Notes: generated by a model not told the origin, from the letters alone. 64,000 nucleotides of DNA from Moniliella sp. 'wahieum' (GCA_003971905.1 RSEE01000034.1:434001-498000); one strand, 5' to 3'; positions 1,229-62,171 are shown, numbered from the stretch's first letter. Made by a program: numbers and translations.

Positions 1229-1245
1229 TCAGGCCTCAGGCCTGA
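1229..1245. repeat. TNA-palindrome array TCA GGCC TCA GGCC TGA
   Basis: Read directly from the sequence; 7-bp period. Confidence 0.9.
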
Positions 1246-2202
1246 TGTAGCCAAGCAGATTGACACTGACGCACTGACCACGGAACACGATCCTTTTTGC
1301 AGAGTGGGGAGCTACTTAATAAGTGAGAGAAAACAACGGAAACACCTCTCCTTCAACAAAATCATTCCCAATTAGTACATCGTTGAAAACACACCGTTTT
1401 GGCCAAGTCGCCAGAAGCCCAGAAAAGAGAGTTGCCCCAAGTCAAGGATGGATTGGAAAAGTGAGCCGTTATGCATTATGGGATGGGAAACCAGATCAAA
1501 GCCCATCAATATATGGGTCCCGTCCGGCGCGTATTTGATGCAAAAAGCTCCAACCTCCAGCTCTCTGACCGCTCGAAGAAGAACGATATTCCACTCTGGC
1601 TCCTCCAGAGCGTGTACATTGAAGCAGGGCCCATAATCTATGATGCCGCGGCGCCGTGTGCATCCCCGGGTATATCCCCAGTTAACTGGTGGTCTTCCTC
1701 TACGTCAGCACGGAGCGCGGTGGTTATGCGCGCCCCAACCGGGTCATGCTTTTGTGACGGGGTCACATGGCATGTCACATGACCACATCACATGCTCACG
1801 TTTCAAAGTCGGATTGTTACATTTCAATCGGCAGGGCATCCGCTTCAAAAGAAGAGCCAAGCAGCCAACGCCATTTCCGGTGCAAATGGCAGGGTGGATT
1901 ACATATCCCACTGCAATTGAAACCAACCCCACTGGGCACGGGCAGGCACGGCGCGTGTTGGCGCCTTGCTGGCCACGCCTCGCTGTCAAGCTGGCGCCCA
2001 GTGCGCCATCCCGCCCGCCCCAGCAGAGAGCCAGTGTGAGGTACCCCCCCCCCAACCAGCCAGGTTCGAATAGTGCTCGGCTTCGCCCGGCCCTGCCTTT
2101 CACCTGAACCTGGAACGCCAGCTCGCACCGCGTTGGGAAGGACTCCAGCCGCCTCTTTCTCTCTCACCACCACCCCTGCCCGCCTCTGTACTCAGCACCA
2201 CC

Positions 2203-3076
2203 ATGGCCATCCCCCCCTCCTGGAAGGACCTGAGCAAGGCCACCAACGACCTGCTCGGCAAGGACTACCCCCTGGGCCACACCTCGCTTGATGTCAAGTC
2301 GGTCGCCCCCAACGGCGTCACCTTCCACGTCCAGGGTGCTCGCAACAACCAGACGGCCGACATTCTGGCCGACCTGGAGATCAAGGTGGCCAACAAGGCC
2401 AAGGGCTTGAGCTCCACCACGGTCTGGACCACCACCCAACCAGATTCGCCAGACGGTCGAGGCCGACAACTACCTTGCCAAGGGCTTCAAGGCGGACTTT
2501 GTCTCGGCCTTCAACCCGGAAAAGGGCACCAAGTCGGGCGTGATCAACACTGTCTTCAAGCAGCCCAATCTTCACACGCGCACCACCGTTGACCTTACCA
2601 AGGGCCCGCTGGTCGCCCACGATTCGGTTGCAGGCCGCGACGGCTTTGTCGCCGGCTACGCCGCCTTGGTCAACCTCCAGACCAAGCAGGTGACCAACTA
2701 CGAGCTGGCCGCGGGCTACTATGCGCGCGACTACTCGGTCACGCTGCAGGGCACCAAGCGTCTCAACAACTTTATTGCGTCGTACTACCACCGTCTCAAT
2801 GCCGACCTCGAGACGGGTGCGCGCGTGCACTTTGACGCTAGCAAGCCGGCCAAGGAGACCAAGCTCGAGCTCGGCAGCAAGGTCTACCTCGACAATGCCG
2901 CCTTTGTCAAGGCCAAGATCAACAACGACGGCATCCTCGGCCTGGGCTACACACAGGCCCTCCGTCCGGGCGTCAAGACGTCCCTCGGTCTCGCTCTCGA
3001 CACGAAGGCGTTCTCGGCGACCGAGGCGGTGACCCCGGCCCACAAGGTCGGCGCGGCGCTCTTCTTCGAGGCCTAA
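2203..3076 (+). CDS. POR1: Mitochondrial outer membrane porin (VDAC)
   Basis: MAIPPSWKDLSKATNDLLGKDY ... KAKINNDGILGLGYTQALRPGVK ... HKVGAALFFEA; one apparent 1-nt indel near 2436. Confidence 0.95.
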
Positions 3077-3504
3077 GTAGAGATAGCAGGCCAATGAGCA
3101 TCATGTCCATCTGCTGCAGCCGAGGCGCTGGCGACCATGGGATAGCTGGTCAGTGGTCCGTACCAGTGGGAATAGGCCAGCCCGCGCTTTCGGATGACTA
3201 ACGTAGTCTGGGGGAGGAGCACGCAAGGCCTGGCAGGGCTCAGCGCTGGCAGACGCGTGATGCGTGACGTGTGAGTGTGACGTGGCGTCACATGTCACAG
3301 ACGAGGGGGGCGTGTTATGTCAGCGCTGAGCGTCCCCTGGGATGTGCGGTGGCGTGGCTCCTGGGGATGTGCGAGTTGCTGCCCCGGGCATGGGACCAGT
3401 GTCAAGTAGGGGGCTGTCTGTGGCATGGGCTGGGGACTAACGAACGGGCTGCCACCTGCGTCTGCTAGAAGGGCAAGCTGACCACCCCACGACTGCCTCT
3501 CGTC

Positions 3505-8195: not shown

Positions 8196-9193
8196 GGGGG
8201 GGATCTGACCAGGGGGCTGCAATGCATGGCAGACGGATGTGCCCGTGGCATGCGCTTTCCACAGAGGGGACGCTACATAGACGAGGATGAGCCAGGTGAG
8301 AACAGGCACTGAGTACTGATGGAGGAGACAAAGGACGGATGATGTCATGGGGGCGGGTGGGGCGCTAGGGTTGCTGCTGGCTGCTGCTGTGGCTTGGCGC
8401 GCAGGAGCAAACACATCACGCGTCATGCGTGGTGTGATGCGTTGGCTCGGCATCGCCTGCGGATGAGTACTGAGTGGGTTAGTAGTGGGTTGAGGCTGGC
8501 GTGCTGCTGGGCGCGGCGGCTGCGTCGTATCTCGCCCGGGGCAGGCGGCTGGCGGCGCAGGCTGGGGGGCGCCGCTGCTGATTGCTGGACGGACTCCACC
8601 CCCACCACCAGCCGCCGTGTCGGGGCCACCACCACCGCCCCCGCCCCCGCCCCCGCCACCACCACCCGCATGCCTCTCCTCGCGCGCCCCGAGCAGCAAC
8701 GCAGCGACCGCGCCCCACCCAGTGCGTGGCCCGCCGCGCCGCCCCGCCTCCACCCCCTCGGCCATCTCCGCATACGCCTCCAGCCCCACCAGCACTGCCT
8801 CCGACGCCACGACTGCAGTCCACGCCCCGCGTGGCCTCAAGCACGATCTTTCGGCCTCCATCCGCTCCTTCCCCCTCCTCTCCGACGAGTCCGACCCCCC
8901 TGTCCCGCCCCATTCCCCGCGTCCACCTCCGCCCCCCCCCGTCCCTCGGCCACTGCGGCGCCCACGCCCGTGCCCACGCCCGCTGCCCCCCCGCCTCGTG
9001 CGCCTCCACGAGCACTTGCCCCCGCCTCCGCCTTGCCCCTCTACAACTCCCAGCCCGCCGCCTCCGTCTCGGCCTCGCATCTGCCGCCCACCCCCCCCGC
9101 TCCTTCCGCCGTCCACGCTTGGCGGGGCGCCGCGACCGCAAGGACAACCGCCTTGCTGCCGCAATCAAGAGCCCCTTTCGCCGCCGTCGCGTG

Positions 9194-15149: not shown

Positions 15150-17453
15150 CCTCGACCCACTGCCCTCGGCTGGTAGCACCGGCGTGCCACGCCCCATACT
15201 GTTCTCTCCCCTGCCTCGTTCGACTTTGGCTCGCGTCGCTCGTCGCGTGCGCGGCTGCGCGAAGCGCGTCGGCCATCCTCGAGCGTACACTCGACTTCGC
15301 CGTCTCGTGCGCCTGCTGCGTCATCGTCTCTGCTCTCCCTTCACAAGCGACCCTGATCCCGTGGCTTGTCGCCCCTCACCCCCCCTCACCCTCCCAAGAT
15401 CCCAAGCTCCTGGGCTCACAACCTCTTACCTCCCCCTCCTTCCTCCTTGCCTCCTGCTCTTCTACCCTCATCTTCGGTTTGTTTGTTTTTTCCTTTGTTT
15501 ACCCCACCCTTTTCTTGCCGTTGCAATCTTCTCTCTATCCTCTTTGATCCGCCCGGTGGGGGACCGAATTCTAGCTCATCGATCCTCTTGATCCCTCGGC
15601 ACCGACCTTAGAGCGTAGCGCTGCCCCTGCAACGTTGCTTGTTTGGCGTCCTGCTGGCTCCGCCTGTACCGCTACCTTGCCTTGCCTGAGACCCGAGGCC
15701 TGTTGAGGCCTGACTAGGGACTGGCGCGCGAGACCAAGCTGCTTACCCGAGCCAAGACCACACAAACATACCGCAACGTTGTGCCTCCGCTTGCCTCTCC
15801 AATCCCCCCCCCGTTCCACCACTGTTCCGCCCATTCCACCCATTCCACCCATTCCATCCTCCTGTTACATATTTCCCTCTTCCCCTCTGGCGTATGTACC
15901 CTCGTTTGGCCCTCTGGCCAGTGTGCTGGACGCCAGTCCTTGCTTTTGCCTTGAACGTGTTTGTTTTTTCGGTGCACTCGGAACGGGCGACGCGGGGCGC
16001 GCTCATAGCATGCTCCAGGCTCCAGGCTCCGTGCTCCGTGCTCCCTCTATAGCCACACGGGACACGCGCGCGTCCGTCTCGTCCCGCGTTTGGCTTGGCT
16101 CGGGTTGATAGAGAGGTATAACAGTGCGTACCGACAAGAGGATTTTGTGAAGGCTACGTTCTGTAAACTGTGGGTTCTGAGCTCAGCTTCCGCTTGAATA
16201 GGGGCAGGCAGGTGAGGGAACTGCTGGTATCTCCACCTTGCCAAGACAACACTAGACCTGACGATTGATGGAGGATGGAAAAATACTGGACAGGGAGGGA
16301 TTATGGATGGATCGACAGGTGGGCGAACTACGAGGGCTCGCCTTACTTTTGCTCAGTTGACCAGAATGCTGCTGCCCCGTCTGGCAGTGGCACGTATACG
16401 GGTATGACTGTGGAACAATCCTTCCTGCTGGTATCCTTGGGATCGCCAGGAGCTGGAAGGCACCCAACATGCATTTTGCGATGCTTCAGACAGAAGACGA
16501 CGGTGTCGTAGTAAGAGCATAGGCGCTCGCCCAACGGACTCGAGCGGTGTGCTCCACAAAGAGGAAACACAAAAAGCCACATCCAGCTCAGCTGTTGGTG
16601 CAAGAGGGGTGGTCGAACAGAGCAGATGAGGGATGGATGGGTGGACAGCCTCTCCGTGGTAGGGATGATGCTTACATACAGCCCATGTCTTGTTTTGCCC
16701 AGCGGCGCCGCCCGCTCGGCTTTGTGTCCGCAATTGATGGTTTAGCTGGTTCCAACACAGAGCACTGGAAGAGAGGCGTCTGACGGGTGCATTTTTGGCT
16801 CTCGGCGCCGCCGCTGGTTTTGCCGCGCCCCCAGGCACGGCTGCCCTGTCGCTGCGCCGCCCGTCCGGCATGACGCAATCCACCTCGGTCTGGCTTGCGG
16901 CGCGAGGGTCGGCGAGCGTCGGTGCAGCTTGCAGGCACTGCCGCGCGCAAACGCTAAAGGGGAAGCGTGTCGCCAACGCGCTGCTGGCGCTCGTCGCCCG
17001 TCTGGCCCTGCCGGCAAGCAGAGCGATGGCCATGTCGAGCGCCTCCGCAGCCACCGCGACACCGATCCCTGCCCGCCCCCCCGCCCCGGCCACCGCGTAC
17101 CTGCAGCACCCGCACCACACCGCCGACGGCCGCGGGGAACGCACTGGCGCCGCGCTGGTCTCGCTCGCTGCGGAGCACGCCGTCTAACTCCGCCCCACAC
17201 GCACTGGCCCACTCGGGCGCCGCTGCTGGGGCACAGTGCTTGGCGCGTACGAGCTTGTGCAGACGCACATGCATCCGCCTGAGCAGCTGCGGCTGGCTGT
17301 CTCCGGCCCCGCACTAGCCCACTCCCGGCCGCGCAAAGCCACCGCTCCGATCGCACGCGCACCGCTGGCACCTCGCCCGTGTCCGCATCCCACTGCGGCC
17401 GGGTGCGGGTGTGCTGGCAGCGCACTGCAGCGCAGGCCAACGCCAGCGCGGAT

Positions 17454-17470
17454 TGAACGTTGAATATTCA
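17454..17470. repeat. Mixed TNA-palindrome array TGA ACGT TGA ATAT TCA
   Basis: Read directly; about 190 bp upstream of the metacaspase ATG. Confidence 0.85.
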
Positions 17471-17661: not shown

Positions 17662-19271
17662 ATGTCCTTCCCCGAACCCTTTGGCGGTGTCGTCCACATG
17701 ATCCCGCCTGCCCCACCAGAGCACCCCCCACAACCCCGGCCCCACGCAACACCCCGGTATGTCCAACTCTGAATAGTAACCCCCCCCCCCCCCCTAACAC
17801 GCCTGGTAGACACATGACCATGCCTCAGCCCTTCCACGGCGGACGCCCATACTACGAGCCAATAGCAACCCTGCCGGAGACTAGCCGCCGCACCAGAACG
17901 TGGTACCCGGGAGAGAGTGACTCGGACCTGCTGGCCACGCCGCGGGGCTATCCGCCTGCACCAGCAGCACCGCGCCCTCATTCTTGGGTCAGCACCTCTG
18001 CTGCAGCTACCGGCTACCCCCCCGCTCCCCCCGGTACCGCACCCGCGCCTGCCCCGATGGCTATGCCGATCCCCCACCCACCCCGAAGATGGGGCCGCGT
18101 GGAAGGACCCTTGGGCCCGCCTGAGTACCGCAACATGAACGTCCGCTTTGATCGCCCCCCCGGGGGCACGATGGAAAATGGGATGCGATATGAGTACAGT
18201 TCGATGACTGGCCGACGCAAAGCCTTGCTGATTGGCATCAACTATCCCGGCACCAAGGCCGAGCTCAAGGGGTGTTGGAACGATGTGGCGAAAATCCGCA
18301 AGTTTATCATGCAGGCAGGCGGGTTGCTGCCAAGGACATGGTGATTCTCACCGATCAAAGTACTGACCCTCGCGCCCGGCCCACCCGGGCCAACATGACG
18401 GCCGCCATGCACTGGCTCGTCAAGGACGCCCAGCCAGGTGACTCGCTCTTCTTCCACTACTCGGGTCATGGGTCCCAGGCCACCGCAAACACAAGGCGAC
18501 GAAGGTGTGTACTCTTTCTTGTGGATCCTGGGTGACCGGTGATGTGAGATGGCTACCGACGATTGGACTAACTTGGCTCTATTCGCCCTCAGCCGATGGA
18601 CTGAACGAGTGCATTGTGCCCTCGGATTACATCAAGAGCGGCTTGATGGAAGATGATGAGTTACATGCGATTATGGTGCGCCCCTTACCCGTTGGCTGCC
18701 GCCTAACTGCCTTGTTTGACTCGTGCCACAGTGGGACGGTGCTGGACCTGCCCTATATTTACTCGGCATCAGGCAAGATTTTGGAAGAGACTGTAGCGGC
18801 CAATGTGGGGGATGGGCTGCAACGTGCAATGCGTGCCTATGCCAGTGGCAACATTATGGATGCTGCTCAGGGCGTGGTGGCAACCATGACACAAGCCCAA
18901 GCCGAACAGCGCGCCCGCGAGATCACCATTCGTACCCGCTCTTCCGGCGCCGACGTGGTCATGTTCTCTGGTTGCAAGGACAGCGAAACCAGTGCCGACA
19001 CGGTCGAAGCCCAGAAGGCCACCGGTGCCTTGAGCCATGCATGGGTCACTGTGTTTGACCGATGGCCTAACCTCACTTACCTCCAACTGCTCAATGCGCT
19101 GCGCGACGAGCTGGTGGAGCGCTTTCATCAGAAACCGCAGGTGCGTTGTTTTCCCCTTTGATTGATCTGGAATGCTTCCTCTGCTGCCAGTTTGGCTTAC
19201 ATCTCCTTTGGGCCCCTCGACAGATCTCCACCTCCCACCCTTACGACTTGAACACACTGTTTACCATCTAG
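17662..19271 (+). CDS. MCA1: Metacaspase (peptidase C14), Pro-rich prodomain, 4 exons
   Basis: [24 protein letters not shown] and [11 protein letters not shown] motifs; introns at about 17757-17809, 18504-18592 and 19141-19223. Confidence 0.93.
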
Positions 19272-20052
19272 AGGCCGTTATTCCTCTTTTCTCTTCTCTC
19301 GCCCACCTATTCGTGGCCCCTCATCTCCCGAAGCGTGATGGGAGGCGCACGCCGTCGAGCATTGCCCGGTACGTCTCTTGTGGCTGCGCACTTCCTCCCT
19401 TCTATATACATTGCATGCTTTCAACTATACCTGTGGAATGCCTAGACGCAGCACCACGACGGAAACATATGGCTATAGGCGATTCAGTCCCTGGTCCAGC
19501 CAGGAGCCTCAGGCCGGCCTGGGCTCGGCGTTCTGTGCAGTCGCCTAAGCAGACTCGAAACCCTGTGTACTTCCTTGGCACGCCGTACGGGTCGTTGGAA
19601 GGGAAGGATTTCTCATCTGCATGGCAACACTGTGGTTTTTGGCTGGCAGCATATTGTGGAAGGACCTCAGTTGTATTATTGTGCATCGTACCTTGTCCTA
19701 GGAGGGGGACTGATTCCCTCGGGATGGAGCCCTTTTAGGCCTTACGGGGGAAGCGGGGGACGGACTGCTGACTGCTTACTGCTGACTAGTGACTGCGGAC
19801 TGCTGACTACCATTAAGTGCGCATTGCTCGCCTAGTCACCATATGGCAGCGGAGACTAATAGGCGTCGCGGAATCGGGGCCTTGTCCGGCTCTGTCGGAT
19901 TTAACTGGACGGAGCAAATTGGTGCGGGGGCCATGTCACGAAGTCACAGCCGCCCCACCCCGCCTTCAAATACTTTTGCTGGGGGACCCATTGCTGTTAA
20001 CCACATCACCACCATCGCCTATGGCCTAACCCCGGCCAAAGCAGCATCCAGC

Positions 20053-23643: not shown

Positions 23644-23962
23644 TGATAGTGTCAACTCTCAAAAACAAAGCGAACCCTCTGCTGTCCGGCGTCGATCTCT
23701 CCCCCTTTTTGAGAAGAATCTGAGCTGTCAACGTGCACATCGCGTCACATTCTACATTTGTGCCAGCAAGCCATCCAGCACAAACGCTTCTGTGCTTCCC
23801 TCCCGGTTCTCCGTATTCAAATACTTCACCATGTTTCCTGTCTTCACTCTTCATTGACCATCTCTCCCCCCGCTTTTTTATTCACGCCTTGACCAACTGT
23901 GTGTTTGATCCTCAGGTCCCACACGGTCCATGTCCCCTTGCGGTTTTTTGTCATTCTTACTC

Positions 23963-23979
23963 TCAGATCTCAGATCTCA
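23963..23979. repeat. TNA-palindrome array TCA GATC TCA GATC TCA
   Basis: Read directly from the sequence. Confidence 0.9.
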
Positions 23980-44989: not shown

Positions 44990-45985
44990 GCCGGTGGCAT
45001 GGTAATCCATGTGTGAAATCTAGACCGAGATGATGAGACCTGGAGTCTCGAAGCTTCAAGTCCCTCGGTAGTGAATAGGCAGTCGCGCCCGGGATAGATG
45101 GTGATGATGATGGATTTGACGCAACCAACGATGACGTCTGCAACTGGGAGTTCAACCAACTACTTTGCCGCTGGCACTGTAACTGCGGAAAAACTAAAAC
45201 AGAAAGGGTTACTCTTCAGGCTTGAGTGAGGCCTGAGGCGGCCTGAGGAGGAACTGCATTATTGGCCGAACGGACCTTACTAGTTACTGTGTGTCCCTGA
45301 AGCCATAGTGCACGGCGGATATACGTTAGCCGGTCACCGGGCTCACTGGCGGTCAGGCTCAGGCCAGGCGGCGTGGACGATGCTAAAGGTTACACACAGT
45401 GTGCCGTCTATTAGGATCTGGTCACAAACTCTTTGTCACAGACTAAATACCCCGATTAGGTTCTTGTATGTAAACGGTGCACTGGTGGTGGGGGTTTTAG
45501 ATTTGCAGCAACACTACGAGCTGTAGTAGCCATCAGCTCCCCGGGAACCAGTAACTGCAAAGGCCACAAGTCGGCGAAGCGCACCTGCATCAGGCTACAG
45601 TACTATGTGAAGGTGATCCGCATCCTGAGGATCAAAACGGAAGTGGTCACAGGATCCCCAGAGTTCAAAAGAAACCGTCCGAATGATGTATGAGTCTCCA
45701 CTGCCACAACAAACAGAGGGGAAATCGCATTTTTGGCGCCCCCTGCTTCTCTCTCCGGCGACTCTCTGTAAGATTCAAGACAAGCAGACGAAAAGGCGAG
45801 CGACCGGGGGCCGAAACGGAGGCCAGATTCAGTGTATCCACATTGGCACTGGAAGCCGCCCCGGTAGGCGGGCGTGCTTTCCAAAGTATTCACAACGGAG
45901 GAGTCAGAAGATGTATGGTATAGGGGCGCACCCGTCCTCTGGCCATCGCCCGCTGATGGTACAGGAGGAGAATGAAGGTGAACAC

Positions 45986-47102: not shown

Positions 47103-47210
47103 CAAAAGGGGCAGCCTTGCCTGGCCACAAAAGGGGCAGTCCTGCCTGGCCACAAAAGGGGCAGTCCTGCCTGGCCACAAAAAGGGCAGCCCTGCCTGGC
47201 CCCAAAAGGG
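47103..47210. repeat. 25-bp minisatellite, about 4.3 copies (CAAAAGGGGCAGTCCTGCCTGGCCA)
   Basis: Head-to-tail units start at 47103, 47128, 47153, 47178 and 47203. Confidence 0.95.
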
Positions 47211-48090
47211 CCGCAGGAAAAGCTCCAGCGCATCTTGCCCCCTTCGACCAGGAACTCACATGTGCTTCGGGACGTTATGCTTCGGGACGTTATCGCGTTA
47301 TGCATTGTGGCATCCCCTCTCCTCCTCCTCCTCAGATTCAGATCTCACCTGTCACAACTGACCCTGGTCTCCTAACTTTGGCGCTGTCATGCTTCCAGCC
47401 CCCACATCCCTCCGTCTTCAATCGTTAATGATTAATCAGTTCCCTTTTCTCGCTTCCTGTTTCTGGTTTGTTTCTTCTTAGATCGTTGGATCTCCTGTCG
47501 GATAGAGGGGAGGTGGTGTCTATAAGCAATAGGACGGGATGTGTTAGCCAAGATCAACGGTGGCAATGCGTCGCAGGCGGAGTGGTCGGGGTCTAGACTC
47601 GAGGACATGTGGGATAAGGCCGATGGGTTACTGAGTACTCAGACTGAGTATTGAGTAAAAGAGGTCTATCGCACCGGCGAGACCAGCCAGAGAAGCAATA
47701 CAGGCACAGTGGTGGATCCCAAAAGAATGGATTGCATGGCACAGGTAGAACAAACAAGAACGGCAAAAGAGGAGACAGAGGGTGAAATAGGCCAAAGTGG
47801 GCCAATCGATGATATTTCCAACACATTTGCCACCCCAGTGCCACCCCGCGTCATCGATCATCGATCGCCGATCACCGATCGATCATCCCACGTAGGTTCC
47901 GTACGCGGACGGGCCCCAAGTCACCACAAAATCAACCTGACTTCACGTGCACCACAAGGAACCAAGAGGAGTCCCTAGTCCACCCTGTCCATAATCAGGG
48001 GCTTTGCCTGAGCGCGCTCAAGCTCGAAACAAGCACACATCAAGCTTCAAGCTCCTGAGGACCACGACACATTCCGCGCTCAGTACTCAG

Positions 48091-50955
48091 TTAAACCTCG
48101 TTGTACTTTTGAGCCGTGGGCAAGTCATGGGACGTGTGGTACGACACACCCGAACCCATCACCCGAGGCATGTCGTGTCGCCGCCCCGGGGCCGGAGTGA
48201 TGTGGAACGAGCGCCGCCGGTGGGGGTGGGTGAGGGGATCATCTTCCTCCCCTGCCGATTCATGCAAGGTGGCCGGGACATCGGGCTCGATCAGTGCCGC
48301 CTCACTCGGCCTGCCCACGTCGGAGAGCGAACGACGTTGGGCCTCGGCTAGCTCGGCAGCTTCACGGGCAGCCAGCGCGCGCTCCCGCTCGCTCCGGCCT
48401 TCCTCTCCCCTGCGACGACGACGCCGGCGGGGCAGCGTGATGAATTTGGGCATGACCCGTACGTCCAGGTCTAGCGCAACATTCGTCGCCGCTTGCAGGG
48501 CTTCAATCCACGCCACCACATGCGCCTGATCGCAGCACTGGATCAGGAACTGTTCGCCACCCAGACGAACGCGCACCACATTTTTCCGCTTAATGTAGTC
48601 GGCCGCCAAACCCGATTCGGCGCGTTGGAGCGAGTAGGTTTTGCTCAAGTTGGCCCCATACGGGTCCGGCCCTGAAGCGTAGGTGTTGATATAGGTGCCA
48701 TGCTGGATCGAAGCTAGCATCGCGTCCGGTGCGTCTGTCATGGCCTTGCGTTGCGCCTCGGTTCCCAACCCGGCATGCTCCGACGTGCCGTCCGATCCGG
48801 GATTTGGGCCGCCGCCCAGATGGCCAATAGCGACGTGAGAATGACGCTGGAACGCGCCACGGGCCGAGTGGGCGGCATGGGACGCTGTTGCCGCCACACC
48901 CGATGTGGCCGTCGAGTTGGATGCCGAGCTTTCATTTTCATTGATCGGGTCGGAATGGACGTGGGTGCCAGCCATGGGTTGGAAGGCGGCGATGGCGACT
49001 GCACGAGGAACCAAGGCGCTCATGTCGCCCTTGTAGACTTTGAGGAAGGTACCATGTAGGACAAAGTAGTACCTCCGCCAACTCCGATCGCGCGACTGGA
49101 CCCCTGGCGCCGAAAATTCCATCTTGCGCGCCAGGTAGCCTTCAATGTGCACCCCCGTTACGTATTGCGGTAGCGGCTCCTGCCCTTCCTCTTCCCGAGG
49201 GAGAATGTGCTGGCTGTGGAACACGTCGGATGAGTAGCTAGGTGGAGCTGCGTCCAGGGCCGACATGGACTTGCGTCCAGATTTGGGCGATCCGGCCCCC
49301 GTTCTGCCTCACCCCCCCCAGACGAAACAGGCTGGGGCATAGTGTGCACCCCTTCGTCCTCTGGTGAGGTGGCATGCGAGCTGCCCCCAGTGGTACTGTT
49401 GCCGCGCAACGAATCGCCCGTGGTCTGAACCGAGTCCCCACTGGAGATCGAGGCGGTTTGGCTCGTCGGTTCAGGCCGAACCAAGGCGCTCCTCCTCACC
49501 CCACCCGCTGCTTCAGCTCGTGTTGCTGCCGTTGCACTGCCACGTGCATTCGGCTGCAAATAGAACTCACCCATGGAGCGCGACAGGCCCGGTCGCAGAG
49601 TCCCATGAGGGTTTGGGGGGGCAGGAGGGTTGGAAATCAGGCCCGAGGGAACGGTAACAGGCGACTCGGGCGCCGAGACAGTTGGTAATCGAACAGACTC
49701 GGGGGCATGTGCAGGCACAGGTGCCGGCGCCGATACAGGGACCGGCAACGCAACTTGTCCCATTTCTCGAGATGGCGTAGGGGTGAGAGAGAGCGCAGCA
49801 GAAATGGCCGAACCACGGCGGGATGTGGGCGCAGCGTGGAGACCAGGGGCCAGTTGGCGCGAAGGCACAGGTTGGATGGGAGCAAACCCACCGCCTAGCG
49901 AGGCCAATGCCGAAGCCATTTGCTGTCGACGTACTTCAGCGGGGACCTGTTGCGCACTATCGTCCGGTGTTCGCAGCCGACGCGACACGGTGATCAGGGG
50001 GGGGAAGGGGGTGGCTCGTGGCCGGTAGGCGCACTGCCGCTTTTGGCCAGGGCACGCGAGGCAGCCGGCCCATGCCCTGTACTGGCAATAGGCACGAGGG
50101 AGAAATAATCTGCCTCAGATCCGGCGGTGGGCGGTGCAGCGGAAGCGACAACACTCGTTCGGCGCGATCCGGGTGCACCAGGCGGTTGGGAGGTGAAGCG
50201 GACCCAGTTCACCCGCCCCACCCGCACCTCTTTGCCATAGATCGCCAAGCCAGCCGAGTCGGGATTGGAGGGCCGAGTGCCCATATGCAAAGAGGCGTTG
50301 GCCAAGGTTGGCGTGGTGGGGACAGGACTTGGATGATGGTAAAAGTAGTAGAACGCACCGGTTCTGTAGAGGGGGGACTGGGGAGATTAGGGGCGGACTC
50401 GTCGTCAGAGGAGCTGTCGGACGAATCTGTCAACTCTTGCGACTCGATAGAGGCACGATGCCCATCGTGGTCGGATCCTGACAGACGACCGAACGATGGA
50501 TCGAAGTTGATTTGAGGGAGTTGATGGAGCGGATCGCGCCGGCTTCTGGGGGGGGGCGATTTACCAGGTCATAAGAAGGCCGGGCAGCACAGGGAGGCGA
50601 GGGGGGTCCTGAATGTGGAGGGTAGAGGGAAAGAGGAGGCACAGTCAGTAGATACGCGTGACAGGGAAGAGTGGGACGGAGGATGGGCAGGCGTACGGAG
50701 ATGATGGGTGAGATGAAAATGGGCGTTATGCTGCTCACCAACTAGACTTGGTTTGCGGCGGTCAGACGGGATGGGAGGAGGCGGAGGGGGGGATGGGGAT
50801 TTGGACAAGTGGGGCGCACGGGTACGGCGAAAGGCGCTGGAGATGCGGGGGGACAGGCGGATGTCGACACTGCGGCGGATGGGGAGGGAGAAGGGCTGCT
50901 GGAAGGGAGTGGAAGACGGTGGGGGCGGGGCTGGGGCTGAGGGAGGAATGGTCAT
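48091..50955 (-). CDS. PH-domain protein (YHR131C/YNL144C-like) with long disordered N-terminus
   Basis: LPREEEGQEPLPQY, EGYLARKMEF, RSWRRYYFVLHGT, YSLQRAESGLAADYIKRKNVVRVR..EQFL and WIEALQA motifs; N-terminal part broken by indels. Confidence 0.8.
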
Positions 50956-51455
50956 CGCCGTCGCCGTCGGGGGGAGGAGCGGTGGAGGCGCGAGTGAGGG
51001 CGCAGGAAGCTGAGCGACGGCATAAGAGCCTCAGATGCAGCTGGACGGCAGGAGCAGGACCCAGAGTGGAGGGAGGGAGATGGAGATGGAGGTGGGAGAG
51101 AGGAGAGGAGACGAAGGGGGTGAAGATGTGGGTATGGGAGGCTCAGCGAGCAGGGGCCGGCGCAGGGCCCGTTGTGGCAGCAGGGCACAGCACATGCTAC
51201 GTCCACAGAGTATTGACTTAGCCTGACGCCTGAATATGGAATTCAATGCTTGAATATGCAATTCAACGCTGGGTGTGAACGCGTGATGTGTGACGGGAAA
51301 AGCTGCAGGCCACCAGAATGGTCGGCGCGGCACACTGCTCTTGCGCCTGATGCACGATGTACACTGGCCTGAGGCGGGAGGTCTGGTGCCACGTGAGCGC
51401 GTGAGCGAGGTACCTCGGTATCTGGCGAGCGCCAGGAGGCCGAGGGCCAGAAAGG

Positions 51456-51479
51456 TCACCGGTCACCGGTCACCGGTCA
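51456..51479. repeat. (TCA CCGG)x3 TCA array
   Basis: Read directly; upstream of the PH-domain gene. Confidence 0.92.
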
Positions 51480-52141
51480 CCACTTATGAAACTGCATGGG
51501 TGACTGTCGCAGATTACAGGCTTTTCCAGGCCGCAGACGCCACGCCAGGTAGGCTGCAGCGCGCACGGGGCAGCACGCAGGCCAGCGCTGCTGGGCCTGC
51601 AGCACAGACACAACTGGGGTGGAGGGTGTAGGCTTGGGGCACCCGGGGAGCTAGAGAGGCGGCAGCCATTCGACAGTCCATTAGGCAGGAGGCTGGCGCG
51701 CTTGAAGCTTGAAGCTTAATCGTGACTCGGACAGACTCTGAATCTAACTCCTCCGGACTGGTACTTTAGGCTAAAGCCTTAGGTCTTGATCTTAGAGAAG
51801 CGTGGGTTCTCAGTCTGAGATCTCTGAGATGATCGATGGTTCGGAGATGGGAGGATCGAGGACTGGAAGACAGTAAGTGATGACATCGATGACATCTTGT
51901 TGCGCTAGTGCAGGCGTCACCTGGTCCCCCAGCACTTTGCAGCCCCTCTCCCGGCCCCTTGTGCGTTCATTCGATGTGCGGCCGTCGATGCCTCGGACCA
52001 TCGACCATCGACCATCGACCACTGACCACCGACCATCGACCCCACCGACCATCGATCATCGATCACTCGATCGCTGGCCATCTGTCGTTGAAACGTTCAA
52101 CTAACATCGATCATTAACATTATGCATTAAGATTCGGCCCA

Positions 52142-52179
52142 TCATGCATCATGCATCATGCATCAGATCTGATCGATGA
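52142..52179. repeat. Mixed array (TCA TGCA)x3 TCA GATC TGA TCGA TGA
   Basis: Read directly; six TNA triplets at exact 7-bp period. Confidence 0.93.
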
Positions 52180-52739
52180 TCTCAGAAAACCTCGAGGGGG
52201 CAACGATTGCAGGGAAACTGCAGAAGGTGCAACACACTCCTAAAGAATCGACGCAAGTCAATGCCCCCAATTTTCAAGTGGAGAGAAACATAGCGTCTTC
52301 CCGCGCTGGCGGCCTAACCGCCTGAATGTAACCTAGCATCAGTAACTAGTAACGGGATGTACTCAACCTGGACCTACTATAAAACCTCCAGAACACTACT
52401 AGTCCTTTCTTTTTCCCCTTCCCTCACGCGCCTCACGATGCCTTCCTGGAGGCGATGTTGTACGATATATACTCTCACTAGCGAGGCTCACGGGGCTCAC
52501 TACACTCCTAGTTATATACAGGCTCCGCAACACAGCAATTACAACCAATGTCCCAACCGCACGTTACTAGTATAGTCCCCGCCCAACACTAACCCTCAAC
52601 AGTCTCTTTGGGTACATATATGATGGCAATACTCAGTACTCACTGCGCGTCACGTAGCAAGTTTTCCATACAAGAACTAACCCGTTCAACGATCTCATTC
52701 AGTGAAGAGGTATAGTTGAGCCCGCACCTTGCAGAGCTG

Positions 52740-53100
52740 TCAAATTAAGATCCTTCTGATACGTAGGAAGCTTCGAAGTTGACAACAGAACATCTTGCCC
52801 CCTTCAACGCGCCGACGGCCGGGAGGCCGCTTTGGCATAACCCAGGTCAAATTCTGCTCGGCATCAATCTTCACATGCATCACAGGAAGTTCTCAAAGTT
52901 CTTAGCTATGGGCTTGATTAGTCGGTTGGTTGGTACTAGCTGGGAAGGTGCAGACTTGTGGTTCGGCAAGTATATATCGTCTTTCCTCCAGCATAGCCAT
53001 GCATGGGACAAATTAAGAGGCATCCGAATGGCTGGAAGCAATGCAGTGAAGAACGAGTGGCCCAAAGCGAGCTTTGGCAAGCAACAGCGACATATGTAAC
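52740..53100 (+). pseudogene. Possible short-chain dehydrogenase remnant
   Basis: *EASKL (TAG at 52764 where the YxxxK Tyr would be), then HNPG, WEGA and GKY, with AQSELWQAT in an adjacent frame. Confidence 0.35.
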
Positions 53101-53136
53101 CAGGAGTTTAGGGAACGGAGACAGGAGGTGAACCAT

Positions 53137-54509: not shown

Positions 54510-56873
54510 GATGGGAGAGGAAGCGACGGAAGGAGGAGAAGCGAGGGGCAGGAAGCGAACCAACCAAACGACGGCGCACGATCGAGCTGCAAGCTTCAAG
54601 CGCCCAGCCAAACAGGCCAAACAAGCCAACAAGCCAAACTCAGCCTGGGCCAAAGCAGGCCAAAGCACCGCGGCCCAACGACTGCGCACTCAGCAGCTGA
54701 CGTAACACTGTTGCGCGCGCGCGCCCGCCTCGCCTGAAAGTTGAAATGAAACGATGGGGCACGGGGGCAGTGGACAGCCGCGTGCGGAGGAGGAATGGGT
54801 CTCAGAAATCGCAGTGGTGCGCGTGCGCGTGAGCGATGACGCGGGCGACGGGATCGGGCACGCAAGCACTGTCCCCCCCCGCCGCCGGCTGACTCGGCGC
54901 AGCGCCAGTGGGAATGGGGTCATTTACAACTCAGGAACTCAGTACTCACGCCGCCCCGTCGTGGGGGCGACGGCCAGCGACCACTCGTCGCTCGTCGTTG
55001 CGCGGGCGTTACAACACGCATCCGTCGTCATGCATCCCGATGAATACAGAAGCTTCCCACCACGCGCCACACCACCCACCATCAGGAAATCCCCTCACCT
55101 ACTCCCATTGTTAAGCATGGCCTCGGCCAACGTCGCTTCCGCCTCTTGGTCCCGCCCTTCGTTCCGCGCCTCTGTTCGGCTTCGCTGATCTCTTCTTATA
55201 TCTTCTCTTCAAGCTTCAGGTCCAACGCTATTCTCACTGCCGACATAGTCTCCTGCACAATCCCCACTCCCGTGGCTCCGTGCATCCTGTTGATTTCTTA
55301 TCCAGCCTGTTGAGCCACCGGGTGGCTCGTGCTTTAGCCAACGTCCCTTCAGTTCCTCCTCAGGCCTACTCGGAGTTCCGTTGTCTTCTCTCTCTCCTGC
55401 TTTTCGTTGTTCGACAGCTTAGCCCCTGGTACCGGCTTGCTGCTTACCTTGAAGCTTGATGTTCCTCTGTAGGCATTGCTGGCTGGCTTAGTTCAGCACC
55501 ACTACCATCAGTGCAATTGCATCACACCCTCGACGACCATCTGGACTCCAGTCTCATCAGAGTTGCAACTCTTCTTCGCTCATCCACTGAGCAACGGTGA
55601 TCGACCTGCACTTCCCATTCCCATCGCCTCACACTACCTATGCCCAACCACCTCCTTCGGCGTATTTCATCAACAATGACGCCATTCCACTTCCTACCCC
55701 TCACCTTTCGGAACCGGACTAGGCCGACCAACACCTTCCGTCTCCTTTTCCTATTAAAGAAGGTATTACCTTCGAACATGCCTCGCAGCTGGTGAAAGAA
55801 CAACTTAGCCAATACCAGATCCTTTACCATATTCTTGAGGGTCACAAACCTCTGTTGGTGGCCAAGAAGGGCCATGAGTCTGTGATTGTCAAGGCCATCT
55901 CACCCATATTTCAGGCCAACTCTCATCTCTCGAGCAAATGATCGTGAAAATGATCGGCGATCCTGCTAGGCGGATTCCCAGCGATCCGTCTTCCCAGACG
56001 ACTGTCGTGCGCCACTACGGCGAGCTGCGTAACGTGTTCCACCGTACTTTGGTGCATTTTTGCGAACCGTGTTGGTTCTCCGCTTCTTCCCATCAGCAAC
56101 CTTCCGCAACATCCAAACCGGTGGATCCTGTCCTACGTCCACGACCAATCGAGTCACCAGTGCCTCACGATGAACCGCTTATTGATATTCCTGTGGCGAC
56201 AAAGACATCACCTCCTGCACCCCCAGTTGGTGGAGATATGATGTCTTCATTGGCTATGCTCAGTTGGTCTTGTCTATGGAACGCCTCATGGATGTGGCTG
56301 AGAAACCTTTAGCGACAGCTCGACCCCACTGGCATTGCCCTTCCTGTATTCTCTTGCATGCCACCAGTCTTACTTTTCACACTGAGTGGGGGGATCGTTC
56401 ATTCCCCTCTTCCCTTGGATCTGTAACCTTTAACTTCACCACCCCATTGGCTTCCTGGGGTATCATCCGCGTCATCCCAAGGCAACATTCACAGCCTGTA
56501 TAGCACCAGCACGATGCGCTTTTCATACCGCACCCAGCCAAGAAGACATGAAGCTGGGGTTGTCCCCTGGGTCCAAAGTCATTAACAAGGTGCCAGACCA
56601 TCATAATATCCACAACGCAGTGCGACTACGCCATGTCCATACCATCATTATACCATACTATGTTTTGACACGGTAGGGTGAGAGGCTGGTGATGGCAAAT
56701 AGCATGAGGGTGGGAACACGAGGAAATTACTTGAGAAAACAAGGTGAAGCCTCCTCCACCTCCTGTTCCCGCGCACAAAATGAGGAAGACACATATGCAA
56801 ATAGCCCTTTTTAAGTCGCAAACGATGGAGGGGGTAAATTGGGCTAGAAGCTCTAGGCACTTGCAAGACGGAA

Positions 56874-58359: not shown

Positions 58360-58757
58360 GGGCAGGTGGAGGGGGAGGGGGGGGGGCGAGAGCGGAGGGA
58401 ACTCAGGCGGAGGGAGGTGGTGGGGGGGCAAGAACGGCTGTGTGGGCGAAGAGCCGAGGCTAGCAGAGCCAAGCAGAGCGGCGAGGCGTGGCGTCGGCGG
58501 CAAGAACGTTTTACGCCAGGCCGCGGGGGATGGGGCGAGTGTGCTTCCGTGTCGTCTGTTTCACCTCGGCGTGTTGTGCCCGGTTGCGCGCTGCGAGCGC
58601 CGCTTTGTCCGTCTGCCGTAATTCCCCGACCACATGCCTTGCGCTTCGACGCTCCGACTTGTCCCGAGCCACACGGGCGCATCACGCGTCACCCGCGTCA
58701 CCCATGCGACTGCCCCGCCACGCCCGCCTGCGGGCTGCCGTGCTGTCCCAGTGCTCT

Positions 58758-58788
58758 TCACATGTCACATGTCACACGTCACATGTCA
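58758..58788. repeat. TCA CATG TCA CATG TCA CACG TCA CATG TCA array
   Basis: Read directly; upstream of the AGC1-like gene. Confidence 0.92.
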
Positions 58789-59819
58789 CCCTTCACGATC
58801 AATCATCGATCGTCGATCAACCACCCAACCCCCCGACCTCCTAACCTGGTTCTACCACTGAGCGGCTCAGTTACACCTCTTGTAAAGTCGGTGCTGGTTA
58901 GCAAGGCCCCAAATGGGTAGTTCAGACAGAAAAGAAAGTCGCTGAGCTTGGCTCTGTTTCCAGGTGCAAACGTCCAACACACATATATACGGGCCTCTTC
59001 TACTGTACTCCTTTCTATAATTTTTCCTTTTGTCGAAGAGGAATGTTCGAAATAGGCGTCAGCGATGGTCATCGAGCCCTCAACTACATCGAGATATCTC
59101 ATCTTGAGCATTGTGGCAACCGCTCATCGCAGCGACCAGCATATAATGTCCCGCGGCCGGCATTATCGCAGCTATCCTCAGAAAAACTTCCGGTCGGACC
59201 AGGTGGAACCACTCCAGCCAGTGACAGGTGACATGCACAACCGGCGCTCGGGAGAAGATCAGAATGCAACCAAAAGCAAAGGTGATGGACCGGCAATGAG
59301 ACATTTCTCTGAGTAGGACAACTGTTGCAGAGACCGCTACTATACCCTTCAAGAGATTCCCCTCCCCGCCGTCGTCAGCGCTCAGCGCGTTCAGCGCCAG
59401 CACTCCTAATATCACTTGTTGTGCTGCACAACTGTGTTTGAGGCCTGTGAGCCTCAGCCTGAGGCCTGAGGGGTTCGCGGTGCAGAAGGGCACCTTGGCC
59501 GCTTTCTGCTTGCGAACATGTGAATGCAAACATTGATGAGTTGAACATGAATAACAGCGTCGAGAGAGAAAACCAGGCGCGGAAAAACTGGCGCCGCAGG
59601 GCGCGGCTCGCAGGTACCAAGCACCAGGTCAGGTAAAGCCGTTACCTCATCTCAGACAGCAACGCGATCAGGACGAGTCCGGTTCTGCTCCTTTATAAGC
59701 GGTTGGAAATGTGCCCAGTCCGTGCGCCCGAATCTTCTGCGCAGTAGCGGAACGGGGAAGAACGGAAAATACGAGGATACTGCATGTCTGCCGCGCTTTC
59801 CTCCCTTCCTCATGGCACC

Positions 59820-61050
59820 ATCATATTTCTACAACGTCCTCCCACGCCCCTCAAACCGCGCTTCGTACCGCACAGCGCGCTGGCCTGGCCCGCATTGCGT
59901 CTCCTCGTTCAATTCCAGTTGGTCCCGCTCTCAGCACTCTCGTCGCCTGACCACCCGTGCCGCCATGTCTACGCTCACGCGGGATGCGTACCTTGAAGTT
60001 CGTAGATGCAGATGAGAGACGGTGTACGAGCATTCAGATTGTGGCCGACGGAAAAGCTGCAGAGCTACTTCGAGGATGACACCTTTCCTGCCATCGGGTA
60101 CGGTTCGTAGGGCGATGCCCAATCGCTCAATCTGCGCGACAATGGCTTAACCGTCATTGTTGGTGTCCGTGAGGGCGGTCGTTCCTGGAAGGAGCCTCAG
60201 GAGAACGGTTATGTACCCGGAAAGACCCTCTTCCCCATTGAAGAGGCCATAATCAACAAGGGAACGATCATTATGAACCTTCTCTCCAACGCTGCCCAGT
60301 CAGAGCTCTGGCCTACAATTGCCCCCCTCTGATCAAGCCCGGAAAGTACTTTTCGCATGGCTTCTCGGTCATGTTCAAGGATGACACGCATACGCATGTT
60401 GTGGCTCTCAAGGACGTCGACGTGATTCTTTGCGCGCAAGGGTTCAGACCGCACCGTAATACGCAGCCTCTACCTCGAGACAAGGGTATCAACTCGTCAG
60501 GCGCAGTGTGCCAGGACGTGACGGGCAAGGCACTCGAGAAGGCTGTTGCTACCGGCATTGCTGTTGGTTCTGGGTACATTTACGAGACCACATTTGAGAA
60601 AAAGGAGGTGTATTCTGACCTGTATGGTGAGCGTGGTGCGCTCATGGGCGGTATCCAGGGCATGTTCAAGGCTCAGTACGACGTGCTGCGCGAAAACGGA
60701 CCCCCCCCGGAGGCCTTCAACGAAACGGGGAACGAAGCGCTCCAGGGCTGTATCCCCTCGTCGACGAGCACGACATGGACTACATGTCAAGGTTAGTTGC
60801 TCCACCACCGTCCGCCGTGGTGCGCTCGACTGAGCACCTGACTTGGAGAAAGCCACCACCTGTCTTTGAGCGTTTCTACGCCTCGGTCCGCAAGGTTGAC
60901 GAGACGCGTCGCATGCTCCAGTTCGCCTCACGCCCTACTTACCGGGGGAGGATTATATGACAGGGAGAGACTGATGCCATCACTGACCAGAAGATATGGC
61001 GGGTTGGCCACACTGTCCGTGCCCTTCGTCCTGACCACGAGAACAAGTAA
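59820..61050 (+). pseudogene. ILV5: Ketol-acid reductoisomerase pseudogene
   Basis: IGYGS*G..LNLRDNG, YFSHGFS, GINSS, EVYSDLYGERG.LMGGI, CSTT.RRGALD* and IWRVGHTVRALRP; stops at 60108 and 60831, several non-homopolymer indels. Confidence 0.88.
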
Positions 61051-61447
61051 AAGGCGTACCCAATGTAGCCGCCTCCTTCTTCCTGGACCCTCCTTCTTGC
61101 CTTCTTCTACAACGATACGAAACCCCATGAGAGTAAAACAGGTGGTACCCGTCTTCGTTCCATTATAGGTTTCCTCGTTACTAGTCGAACACCGCTGCTT
61201 CATGAGGGGGAACGGGAAACGGGGGGGGAACTTTCGCCATTGGTGGAGCGATGTGTGTAAAACTTGTGTGCGGATGGGGCCAGCTAGAGTGGATGATGCG
61301 TCGGGCACCACGAGCGGGGGCAGGCGGAGGCCAGTGGCTGGGGTGTGTCGGTGATGCAACAGAAGTGGAACATTCAACTTGTGGAGATTGAAGCACGGCT
61401 GCGGGTTTACCCGGTGTTTCTCTCTCGAGGCATAAGTCCCAGGCATT

Positions 61448-61479
61448 TGAAGCTTCAAGCTTGACTTCATCAAGCTTCA
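61448..61479. repeat. TGA AGCT TCA AGCT TGA ... TCA AGCT TCA array (more copies at 61666 and 61694)
   Basis: Read directly from the sequence. Confidence 0.9.
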
Positions 61480-62171
61480 AGTACCCCAAGCGTCTGCGGT
61501 ATGGACCAGCCACAGGTACGCAACAGGTATACGCCAGCTCACCCATAGTCAGCGCCCAGCGACTAGGCGCTCAACGCGCTCAGCCCCAGTGCCCGCCAAC
61601 GCCACCAGCCCACTTGGAGCTTCAGGCTTCAGGGCCTCAGCAGGCCCTGAGGCTTCATGGACTATTGAAGCTTGAAGCGTGAAGCTATTCGCTTGAAGCT
61701 TGACGACCAGAAAATGGAGCTGGGCAGCTGTCGAGGCCGGATGATGGATGATGACGTTGATCCGATGGCTGTCGACCGAGTTGGTTGGGCTGGGTTGGGT
61801 CGGTAGTGCCTTGGTCACGCTGGTCAAGCTGGTCAAGCTGGTCAAGCTGAGCTTCAAGCATCCAGCTGAAGGCTAAAAAGCGAGACATTGGGGCAAGGGG
61901 TGGGTGGCACTCACTAGTCACTGTATTGGACGCCACTGTGCGTGTGGGCGCGCTGGCGCTGCAATGCCGTTGAGCTCACCTGTTGGTGGGTCGATGACCG
62001 GATGGGATGATCGCTGGTCTTGGCCGTCTCCACAGCGTCCGTGGGGTTGCGACGGGTGACGCCGGGGACGGTGAAGCGATGCCCCCGCATCTCCACACTC
62101 CGCCCGCCTTTTTTTGCCCCCAACACCACCACCGCCCAAGCGTCACGCCTGCGTCGGTGCTGGCTCTCGGC

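Follow-up and report, generated by a model that had tools for sequence, protein, structure and literature searches.

What process could scatter many apparently unrelated short words through intergenic DNA, all of them obeying one rule of symmetry and spacing? This question is raised by a stretch of 64,000 nucleotides from Moniliella sp. 'wahieum' (GCA_003971905.1, RSEE01000034.1:434001-498000), hereafter called the window, in which T-N-A triplets are separated by self-complementary 4-mers and recur with a period of seven bases. Coordinates are positions in the whole stretch, counted from its first letter, and all motif statistics refer to this one 64-kb window and to a set of control loci. Our analysis suggests, with moderate confidence, that the pattern is a lineage-specific scar in which seven bases are gained at T-N-A through a hairpin-like intermediate, and that it is of mutational origin rather than a functional site.

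Enrichment and grammar of the repeated unit

The enrichment can be read directly from the sequence. In words such as T.A and A....T a dot denotes any base, and in composite words such as W.P.W the dots separate the parts. With 200 dinucleotide-preserving shuffles of the window as background, two T.A triplets around a 4-bp palindrome were found 70 times, compared to 6.7 +/- 2.8 in the shuffles (maximum 14), and the matches fall in 51 separate loci (shuffles 6.7). A preliminary description of this DNA had proposed a repeated TNA-palindrome-TNA rule, and the described strings were found at all 27 coordinates that it listed, a few of them beginning 1-4 bases later (34475, 36354, 47429, 19783). Its count of 11 arrays with at least three triplets was matched exactly (0.005 expected by shuffling), and its claim that 14 of the 16 possible palindromes are used was reproduced, AATT and TATA being the missing ones (5.2 distinct cores in the shuffles).

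The excess is confined to a narrow class of words. T.A flanks around a non-palindromic 4-mer show no excess in the window (99 vs. 103 expected, as against 70 vs. 6.7 for palindromic spacers), so that the outcome which the preliminary description had named as its refutation, an equal enrichment of both kinds of spacer, did not occur. When a palindromic spacer is combined with any of the other 15 flank types a.b, no enrichment is seen (ratios 0.63-1.48), and T.A pairs separated by palindromes of 2, 6 or 8 bp likewise remain at background. The earlier proposal that the rule concerns symmetry and period, and not a fixed sequence, is supported. As a class, A....T hexamer palindromes are 1.5-fold up (246 vs. 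163 expected), an excess accounted for by the full 10-mer, and C....G, G....C and T....A hexamer palindromes are not raised. In DNA outside open reading frames (ORFs), TNATNA without filler is weakly raised (20 vs. 14). T-N-A repeats with a 6-base spacer are also raised there (28 vs. 13), owing to a 9-bp array at 61812-61849 consisting of 4.2 copies of TGGTCAAGC followed by GAGCTTCAAGC.

The initial observation is thus confirmed, and it proved sharper than first stated. The underlying unit is a 12-mer, W.P.W, where W is T-N-A-x-y and P is y'x', and it occurs on either strand. It was found 61 times in 38 loci, compared to 0.25-0.32 in the shuffles. In the 40 single sites the middle bases of the two triplets are identical in 34, complementary in five and otherwise different in one; perfect 12-mers, for which a matching middle base is required, account for 28. 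Period-7 identity runs exactly two bases further on one side in 31 of these 40 sites and on both sides in one. Single 12-mers lie on the plus strand in 16 cases and on the minus strand in 13, with no obvious clustering of strand by eye, no formal test having been applied.

The same unit emerges from an unbiased search, in which any 5-mer W was sought with its last two bases, reverse-complemented, directly behind it and then a second copy of W. Among the 54 loci retrieved, 38 have W = T.A.., none has the mirror form ..T.A, and the remaining 16 are about the chance level. If the unit is instead divided into a repeat of four bases and an inverted copy of three, the second base is A in 68 cases, C in two, G in five and T in none, and a T lies upstream in 61 of the 68 cases with A. 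Similarly, 61 of the 79 T.A.. 5-mer repeats with a 2-base spacer carry the exact inverted complement, rc(xy), and about six of the 18 exceptions are, by our own reading, one substitution off. The middle base is C or G in 32 of the 38 loci, compared to an availability of 69% (p = 0.05); it roughly tracks availability, which indicates that the anchor is T-N-A.

Related words are few. A longer inverted stretch, W.P4.W, was found twice (0.02 expected). Both copies lie in the motif-rich spacer at 51.8 kb, and in both the inverted part includes the complement of the middle base, as expected of a true inverted copy. The full-length inverted form W.rc(W) reaches 22 strand-counts vs. 3.5 expected. The P1 variant occurs eight times (0.8 expected), most matches lying in hexamer repeats that we take as coding, and the P3 variant is absent from the window.

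Among all 70 matches, 11 have unequal middle bases that are complementary (C against G), and four show some other difference. Transitions would be expected to be the common change at this position, yet the complement prevails. We attribute the excess of complementary differences to the product with a longer inverted copy or to quasi-palindrome correction by template switching, a process known from bacterial and yeast mutagenesis. Such correction resembles what is seen here in that the complement-biased differences turn an imperfect 10-mer into a perfect palindrome; however, it covers this secondary variant only and not the origin of the 12-mer.

A control set of 17 fungal metagenome loci encoding Svf1 relatives (208 kb, several redundant, G+C 41-62%) showed no excess of the 10-mer pattern (47 vs. 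61 expected). It contained ten 12-mers vs. 2.5 expected, eight of which are the same two sites in four near-identical contigs. These sites, TCATA.TA.TCATA and TCACA.TG.TCACA, lie 40 bp apart among TGA(C/G)TCA words (L012, 13679-13730; the same in L013, L014 and L015), in an unrelated fungal metagenome contig of 46% G+C without overall enrichment of the pattern. The pattern is not a general property of fungal intergenic DNA, and we read it as lineage-specific.

Location, decay and arrays

The location of the loci was assessed with a long-ORF mask (stop-free stretches of at least 150 codons, 74% of the window), which is crude and misclassifies introns and short exons. It replaced a codon-usage coding mask that called just 16% of the window coding and was judged too weak. 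Eighteen of the 51 loci lie inside the mask, and the density of 12-mers is 2.25 per kb in non-ORF DNA vs. 0.46 per kb in ORF-covered DNA, about a 5-fold difference, with approximately zero in within-class shuffles. The loci are spread over the non-ORF segments as segment length predicts (p = 0.21) and, by inspection, occur both upstream and downstream of Pfam-supported genes. Outside ORFs the window has 899 T-N-A sites, and 26 of the 38 12-mer loci occupy such sites, approximately 3% of them.

Decay is equally visible. Sites breaking none, one or two of the nine constraints of the 12-mer number 61, 73 and 190, compared to 0.25, 7.9 and 104 expected. This series is of the kind that unconstrained sequence would show and looks neutral.

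In eleven loci, 3 to 6 units follow one another head to tail with period 7. Among exact period-7 arrays of at least 16 bp, the unit is an A....T hexamer palindrome plus one base in 11 of 16, compared to about 3% for a random unit by our own estimate, and arrays with periods 8, 9 and 10 number 1, 3 and 1. Mixed arrays such as 36354-36384 appear to differ by CpG-type transitions. The heptamer arrays at 19763-19808 (GACTGCT), 41483-41519 (CTTGCGC), 16009-16044 (CATGCTC) and 38887-38905 (GTCCCCC) do not follow the palindrome rule, suggesting that period 7 is favoured in this DNA beyond the palindromic class. At 36349-36389 a cluster of ACGCGT words, the MluI cell-cycle box of yeasts, stands at the start of an ORF (36356-37114); an origin as a scar array would not prevent this cluster from having a regulatory role. 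Two tandem repeats adjoin the motif. One, outside the T-N-A rule, has a 25-bp unit (47103-47210, 4.3 copies, 92% matches) and shares its spacer with five motif loci. The other has a 20-bp unit (51226-51270, 2.2 copies) that includes the word GAATATGCAATTCA, and it is found at one end of the motif-rich spacer 51219-53110. All loci are collected in Table 1.

Table 1. Positions of single sites, arrays and related words in the window.
Position	Feature	Strand
1229-1245	array, 3 triplets, core GGCC (TCA/TCA/TGA)	no strand
1469-1480	canonical 12-mer, W=TTATG	+
3288-3299	canonical 12-mer, W=TCACA	+
3320-3331	12-mer, complementary middle base (TCAGC.GC.TGAGC)	+
8308-8319	canonical 12-mer, W=TCAGT	-
8416-8425	10-mer only, core CGCG	no strand
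8464-8475	canonical 12-mer, W=TGAGT	+
15704-15713	10-mer only, core GGCC	no strand
17454-17470	3 triplets, two different cores (ACGT, ATAT)	no strand
18531-18542	canonical 12-mer, W=TCACC; in 5' part of metacaspase ORF region	-
19735-19744	10-mer only, core GGCC (TTA/TTA)	no strand
19783-19794	canonical 12-mer, W=TGACT	+
22121-22132	canonical 12-mer, W=TTATG	-
23961-23979	array, 3 triplets, core GATC, 19 bp (= W.P.W.P.W)	no strand
27246-27257	canonical 12-mer, W=TCACC	-
31257-31266	10-bp perfect palindrome inside mRNA-capping-enzyme coding region; probably chance	no strand
34473-34491	array, 3 triplets TAA, core TCGA	no strand
35868-35877	10-bp palindrome, core TTAA (TCA/TGA)	no strand
36354-36384	array, 5 triplets, cores TGCA and CGCG (ACGCGT units)	no strand
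38505-38532	array, 4 triplets TGA, core TCGA, 28 bp	no strand
41812-41821	10-mer only, core TCGA (TCA/TAA)	no strand
41912-41921	10-mer only, core TGCA	no strand
41982-41993	canonical 12-mer, W=TCAGT	-
42497-42508	canonical 12-mer, W=TGATC	+
45227-45238	canonical 12-mer, W=TGAGG	+
45277-45288	canonical 12-mer, W=TTACT	+
47338-47347	10-mer only, core GATC	no strand
47429-47438	10-bp palindrome, core TTAA (TGA/TCA); complementary-middle-base 12-mer	no strand
47632-47641	10-bp palindrome, core GTAC (TGA/TCA)	no strand
47851-47862	canonical 12-mer, W=TCATC; head of decayed array reaching about 47880	+
48040-48051	canonical 12-mer, W=TCAAG	+
48080-48091	canonical 12-mer, W=TCAGT	+
51454-51481	array, 4 triplets TCA, core CCGG, 28 bp	no strand
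51701-51719	array, 3 triplets, core AGCT	no strand
51816-51829	rare sibling W.P4.W (TGAGA.TCTC.TGAGA), 4-base inverted copy	+
51879-51892	rare sibling W.P4.W (TCATC.GATG.TCATC)	-
51996-52072	decayed heptamer array (GACCATC / CATCGAT units), includes 12-mer at 52054-52065	no strand
52118-52129	canonical 12-mer, W=TAATG	-
52140-52181	array, 6 triplets, three cores in one phase (TGCA x3, GATC, TCGA)	no strand
52341-52352	canonical 12-mer, W=TTACT	-
52631-52642	canonical 12-mer, W=TGAGT	-
54937-54948	canonical 12-mer, W=TGAGT	-
55207-55218	canonical 12-mer, W=TGAAG	-
55448-55459	canonical 12-mer, W=TCAAG	-
58682-58691	10-mer only, core CGCG	no strand
58758-58788	array, core CATG (TCACATG units, one mutated to CACG)	no strand
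59375-59386	canonical 12-mer, W=TCAGC	+
59458-59471	sole locus extended on both sides (two full units), core GGCC	no strand
61448-61464	array, 3 triplets TGA/TCA/TGA, core AGCT	no strand
61470-61481	canonical 12-mer, W=TCAAG	+
61666-61677	canonical 12-mer, W=TGAAG	+
61692-61703	canonical 12-mer, W=TCAAG	-
61911-61922	canonical 12-mer, W=TCACT	+

The window has 59.0% G+C and carries split eukaryotic genes for a porin, CCDC47, a class II aminoacyl-tRNA synthetase, Atg4, a metacaspase, an MFS transporter, NAP, dynactin-5, L7Ae, an mRNA capping enzyme and an M17 aminopeptidase; the remaining genes encode a PH-domain protein, Svf1, a mitochondrial carrier and KARI, and no tRNA genes were found in the 64 kb. 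The complete CCDC47 protein has Tilletiaria anomala as its closest named relative (51% identity), identity to Ustilago, Sporisorium, Pseudozyma, Moesziomyces and Testicularia is 40-45%, and further database relatives reach 78-79%. Judging from these genes and relatives, the window is nuclear DNA of an Ustilaginomycotina-like basidiomycete, the proteins of which are themselves absent from the database searched. A relationship to Ustilaginomycotina, suggested earlier, holds at the level of the subphylum, with CCDC47 nearest to T. anomala and then to Ustilaginales. The heptamer arrays of Ustilago maydis mentioned in that connection found no confirmation in the literature searched; a paper on tandem repeats that does not cover Ustilago (PMC3152781) and another on mitochondrial palindromic repeats (PMC7218506) are not relevant to the pattern. 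A description of the T-N-A grammar was likewise not found in the literature searched, subscription journals and supplements of genome papers being outside its reach, so that a prior one is possible.

A proposed seven-base scar and competing explanations

How could such a unit arise? We infer an ancestral state TNAxy, a hairpin and a nuclease. A start site T-N-A-x-y, with N, x and y free, would gain seven bases, so that TNAxy becomes TNAxy.y'x'.TNAxy. Five bases would thus be duplicated directly, the two adjoining bases being copied in inverted form between the repeats, and a product of the form W.P.W automatically contains the hexamer palindrome A-xyy'x'-T and has a period of 7. A staggered double-strand break anchored on T-N-A, with one strand cut just 5' of T and the other strand two bases beyond A, may be the initial lesion, as the simplest chemistry leading to this product. 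Fill-in of the overhangs would create the duplication, and the end bearing TNAxy would be closed into a hairpin and reopened two bases from the tip, leaving a pair of P nucleotides. The agent would be a protein, possibly a transposase of the cut-and-paste type or a nuclease domesticated by the host, with T-N-A as its target as in PIF/Harbinger; the fixed geometry and the strict T.A requirement argue for a protein, given that C.G, G.C and A.T flanks would serve equally well as microhomology yet are not enriched. Arrays may then grow, most simply by repetition of the event on the new TNAxy copies, or alternatively by replication slippage once two units exist, and point mutation would erode them. 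Repetition predicts lengths of 12, 19 and 26 bases, and array lengths of 19 and 26 bases were observed.

This scheme was examined by a symbolic enumeration in which a single break could have its two cuts anywhere, its ends could be filled in or trimmed, and a hairpin could close and be opened at whatever offset. W.P.W was obtained only when one strand is cut two bases 3' of TNA and the other 5' of T or between T and N, and when the TNA-side hairpin is opened 2 (or 3) bases from its tip. With an inverted stretch of 4-5 bases the same scheme yields W.P4.W and the complementary-middle-base 12-mer (3320, 47429). The only siblings seen, W.P4.W and W.rc(W), are those that a hairpin predicts, which argues for a hairpin scar. 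Furthermore, the direct repeat measures 5 and not 7 bases, and the inverted pair has no template in direct orientation, indicating that the palindrome was made by the event and was not its target. Isolated y'x'TNAxy words, the would-be palindromic precursors, number 360 vs. 360 expected, and TNA plus a palindrome without a following TNA numbers 341 vs. 309, both comparisons being of modest power. The precursors are not depleted, which again favours creation of the palindrome by the event; targeting of pre-existing palindromes is accordingly not favoured.

The earlier suggestion of a fold-back process fares well in part. An inverted-copy step is the natural source of the core, but a pure palindrome is not what is observed, the middle bases of single sites being identical far more often than complementary (34 vs. 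5 of 40). Pure fold-back would not give a 5-base direct repeat framing a 2-base inverted copy, and the pattern is thus not simply a palindrome.

Several other simple origins were considered and set aside. A plain 7-bp tandem duplication is ruled out by the 5-base length of the direct repeat. A footprint consisting of transposon ends is ruled out as well, since the core matches the flank next to it on one side and comes in 14 different forms. A hAT-type +7 footprint with T....A repeats needs T and A five bases apart, and the repeat unit lacks these. The product of a PIF-like 3-base cut with a three-base-loop hairpin, TNA.y'x'.TNAxy, occurs just nine times vs. 3.9 expected.

T-N-A with a free middle base, T and A being needed, is the target-site duplication of PIF/Harbinger elements according to PMC4561436, where a 3-base duplication, 5' overhangs and precise excision are described and a footprint, if any, is two duplications alone. 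The window shares with this family (Tourist/mPing) T-N-A triplets that have the same middle base in 34 of 40 single sites, that base following availability. However, in place of two bare duplications its sites show a duplicated stretch of 5 bases and, between the triplets, a palindromic filler of 4 bp in which one half is a copy of the flank. The duplication length and the filler therefore keep the pattern out of the PIF/Harbinger footprints. Elements of that family, with terminal inverted repeats and a DDE transposase plus a Myb-like ORF1, were not found within the 64 kb. Palindromic flank sequences implying hairpins are described for Ac/Ds footprints (PMC4561436).

The likeness to hairpin footprints in general, i.e., those of hAT elements such as Ac/Ds, of Transib/RAG and MULE, and of V(D)J coding ends, lies in an inverted flank copy that sits beside its template between duplications. 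Two inverted bases dominate here and longer copies are rarer (W.P4.W, W.rc(W)); the classical P-nucleotide length at V(D)J coding ends is likewise two bases. As P nucleotides should be, the inserted bases are templated by flanking DNA, rc(xy) being present in 61 of the 79 W-NN-W repeats. Target duplications are 8 bases in hAT, 9-10 in MULE and 5 in Transib/RAG, so that the 5-base duplication would fit only a Transib-like element among these, and T-N-A is not known as the target of any of the three. In hAT, Transib and MULE excision P nucleotides are possible at either flank and the footprints are heterogeneous, whereas here they occupy one side in one dominant product, at about one scar per 0.5 kb of non-coding DNA and with no element in the window. 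Being one-sided, almost invariant and tied to a different target, the pattern departs from the typical footprints of hAT, MULE and Transib elements; it appears to work like a hairpin-type break-repair scar and resembles transposon excision footprints.

A number of observations weigh against the scar as outlined. Inverted bases were never seen at the TN end of W, only at the xy end; such a one-sided product would not be expected from a symmetric transposon that forms hairpins at both of its flanks. No transposon, terminal inverted repeat or transposase domain was found in the 64-kb window by an inverted-repeat scan and a Pfam search of 144 ORFs, and a search for occupied sites (T-N-A or the 5-base duplication flanking 12-base inverted ends) returned only the motif paired with itself. 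The PIF/Harbinger family duplicates three bases and excises precisely (PMC4561436), as opposed to five duplicated bases plus a 2-base inverted copy. Since C.G, G.C and A.T flanks are not enriched, the T.A rule has to be put in by hand as enzyme specificity. In addition, a density of approximately 3% of non-ORF T-N-A sites is very high and hard to reconcile with transposon visits in a compact genome, and the motif statistics derive from a single window. The scheme also gives no account of the three unrelated cores that share one phase at 52140-52181.

At 47628-48093 two near-identical palindromic 12-mers, CTGAGTACTCAG and CTCAGTACTCAG, each flanked by TTA, bracket approximately 440 bp in the manner of a miniature transposon. 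This look may be a coincidence, the word being its own reverse complement.

The very high density gives sizeable weight to a nuclease that is independent of transposons, or to a replication error process. As a more tentative reading, less probable than the scar in its general form, a host nuclease such as a domesticated PIF/Harbinger-like or RAG/Transib-like transposase may cut T-N-A sites genome-wide in this Ustilaginomycotina lineage, some of the cuts ending in the stereotyped +7 scar.

It is also possible, albeit unlikely, that no site-specific nuclease is involved and that a polymerase, in replication or repair synthesis, copies TNAxy, switches to the complementary strand for 2-5 bases and returns, with the self-complementary T.A of TNA as microhomology and always with a gain of seven bases. 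The products with the same and with the complementary middle base would both be +7 solutions of a single scheme, in which inverted and duplicated bases sum to 7. The skew of middle-base differences to the complement (11 vs. 4 others) fits templated copying, and the high density and even spread fit an endogenous error process. Comparable events on a larger scale, namely short templated inverted insertions at breaks and inverted triplications tied to FEN1/Rad27, are described in two publications (PMC11724301; PMC13334657). However, the first switch would proceed without microhomology, as the bases after the 12-mer are unconstrained, and the switch point is fixed exactly two bases after TNA, although a spread of lengths is what thermodynamic or slippage processes produce. 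Neither P1 and P3 nor palindromic spacers of 2 or 6 bp rise much above background, and the equally good microhomology of C.G, G.C and A.T flanks is again not reflected in any enrichment.

More doubtful is the view that the loci are heptanucleotide microsatellites, whose self-complementary units expand via slipped-strand hairpins and whose single sites are minimal or decayed arrays. The eleven period-7 arrays invite this comparison, as do the palindromic units in 11 of the 16 exact arrays, the excess of period 7 over periods 8-10 and the local recurrence of cores, e.g., AGCT at 61448-61703. The unit nevertheless obeys a symmetry rule and only 11 of the 51 loci are arrays; the other 40 are single, in a fixed form of 12 bases and not of 14 or a variable number, one of them extending on both sides. 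Where an array hairpin is predicted, T-N-A forms its three-base loop, but the folding is weak: five arrays gave -2.9 to -14.8 kcal/mol, with z between +1.1 and -2.2 for four and -2.8 for the fifth. The strict T.A rule and the different cores in one phase (52140-52181) are not explained, and arrays of fully palindromic hexamers are missing (a 6-bp palindrome in 0 of 16 period-6 arrays). The pattern is not an ordinary microsatellite, nor is it a cruciform element.

Selection for functional cis-elements, be they dimeric transcription factor sites or structure-read signals (cruciform, nucleosome positioning, replication origin), is improbable. The loci are intergenic, and some cores equal motifs of factor sites, ACGCGT presumably that of the MluI cell-cycle box and TCACATG presumably one resembling RTCACRTG; in the unrelated fungal contig two 12-mers adjoin TGA(C/G)TCA words. 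On the other hand, one grammar is obeyed by 14 different cores, and the core is copied from the adjacent two bases on one side, as no model of protein recognition predicts. Within non-ORF DNA the sites show an even spread and occur 5' as well as 3' of genes, and their decay looks neutral. Two isolated sites, folded as 20-nt stretches of DNA and including one canonical 12-mer, gave no predicted structure (0 kcal/mol), and the five arrays folded weakly when set against shuffled controls. An element read through its structure, whether cruciform, chromatin or origin signal, as the preliminary description had envisaged, is therefore unlikely. Finally, a sequencing or assembly artefact is very improbable, since a real genome that has evolved would be expected to show just such a 5-fold depletion in ORF-covered DNA and so many copies differing by one or two substitutions, and no sequencing platform is known to us to insert, by error, a duplication of 5 bases together with an inverted copy of 2 bases at T-N-A.

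What the scar would mean

If the scar reading is true, a very active and specific break-and-repair process can be read directly from the sequence of this genome, and hairpin opening and end joining in a basidiomycete could be studied there as a natural experiment. The process would explain in concrete terms how microsatellites with a non-random unit are born, and it would be a constant source of new palindromic words in promoters as well. TNAxy vs. the 12-mer at orthologous sites would be a cheap prediction for any pair of related genomes, and the responsible nuclease would be traceable by presence and absence across Ustilaginomycotina. Should the agent be an ordinary transposon family, this would be a rare case of excision scars outnumbering elements. 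If instead a host nuclease is at work, it would leave a new, sequence-anchored mutational signature, with a scar rate per site within an order of magnitude of the point-mutation rate, and it would furnish intergenic DNA with a steady supply of palindromic hexamers (potential dimer-binding, restriction-like words) and of seeds for heptamer microsatellites.

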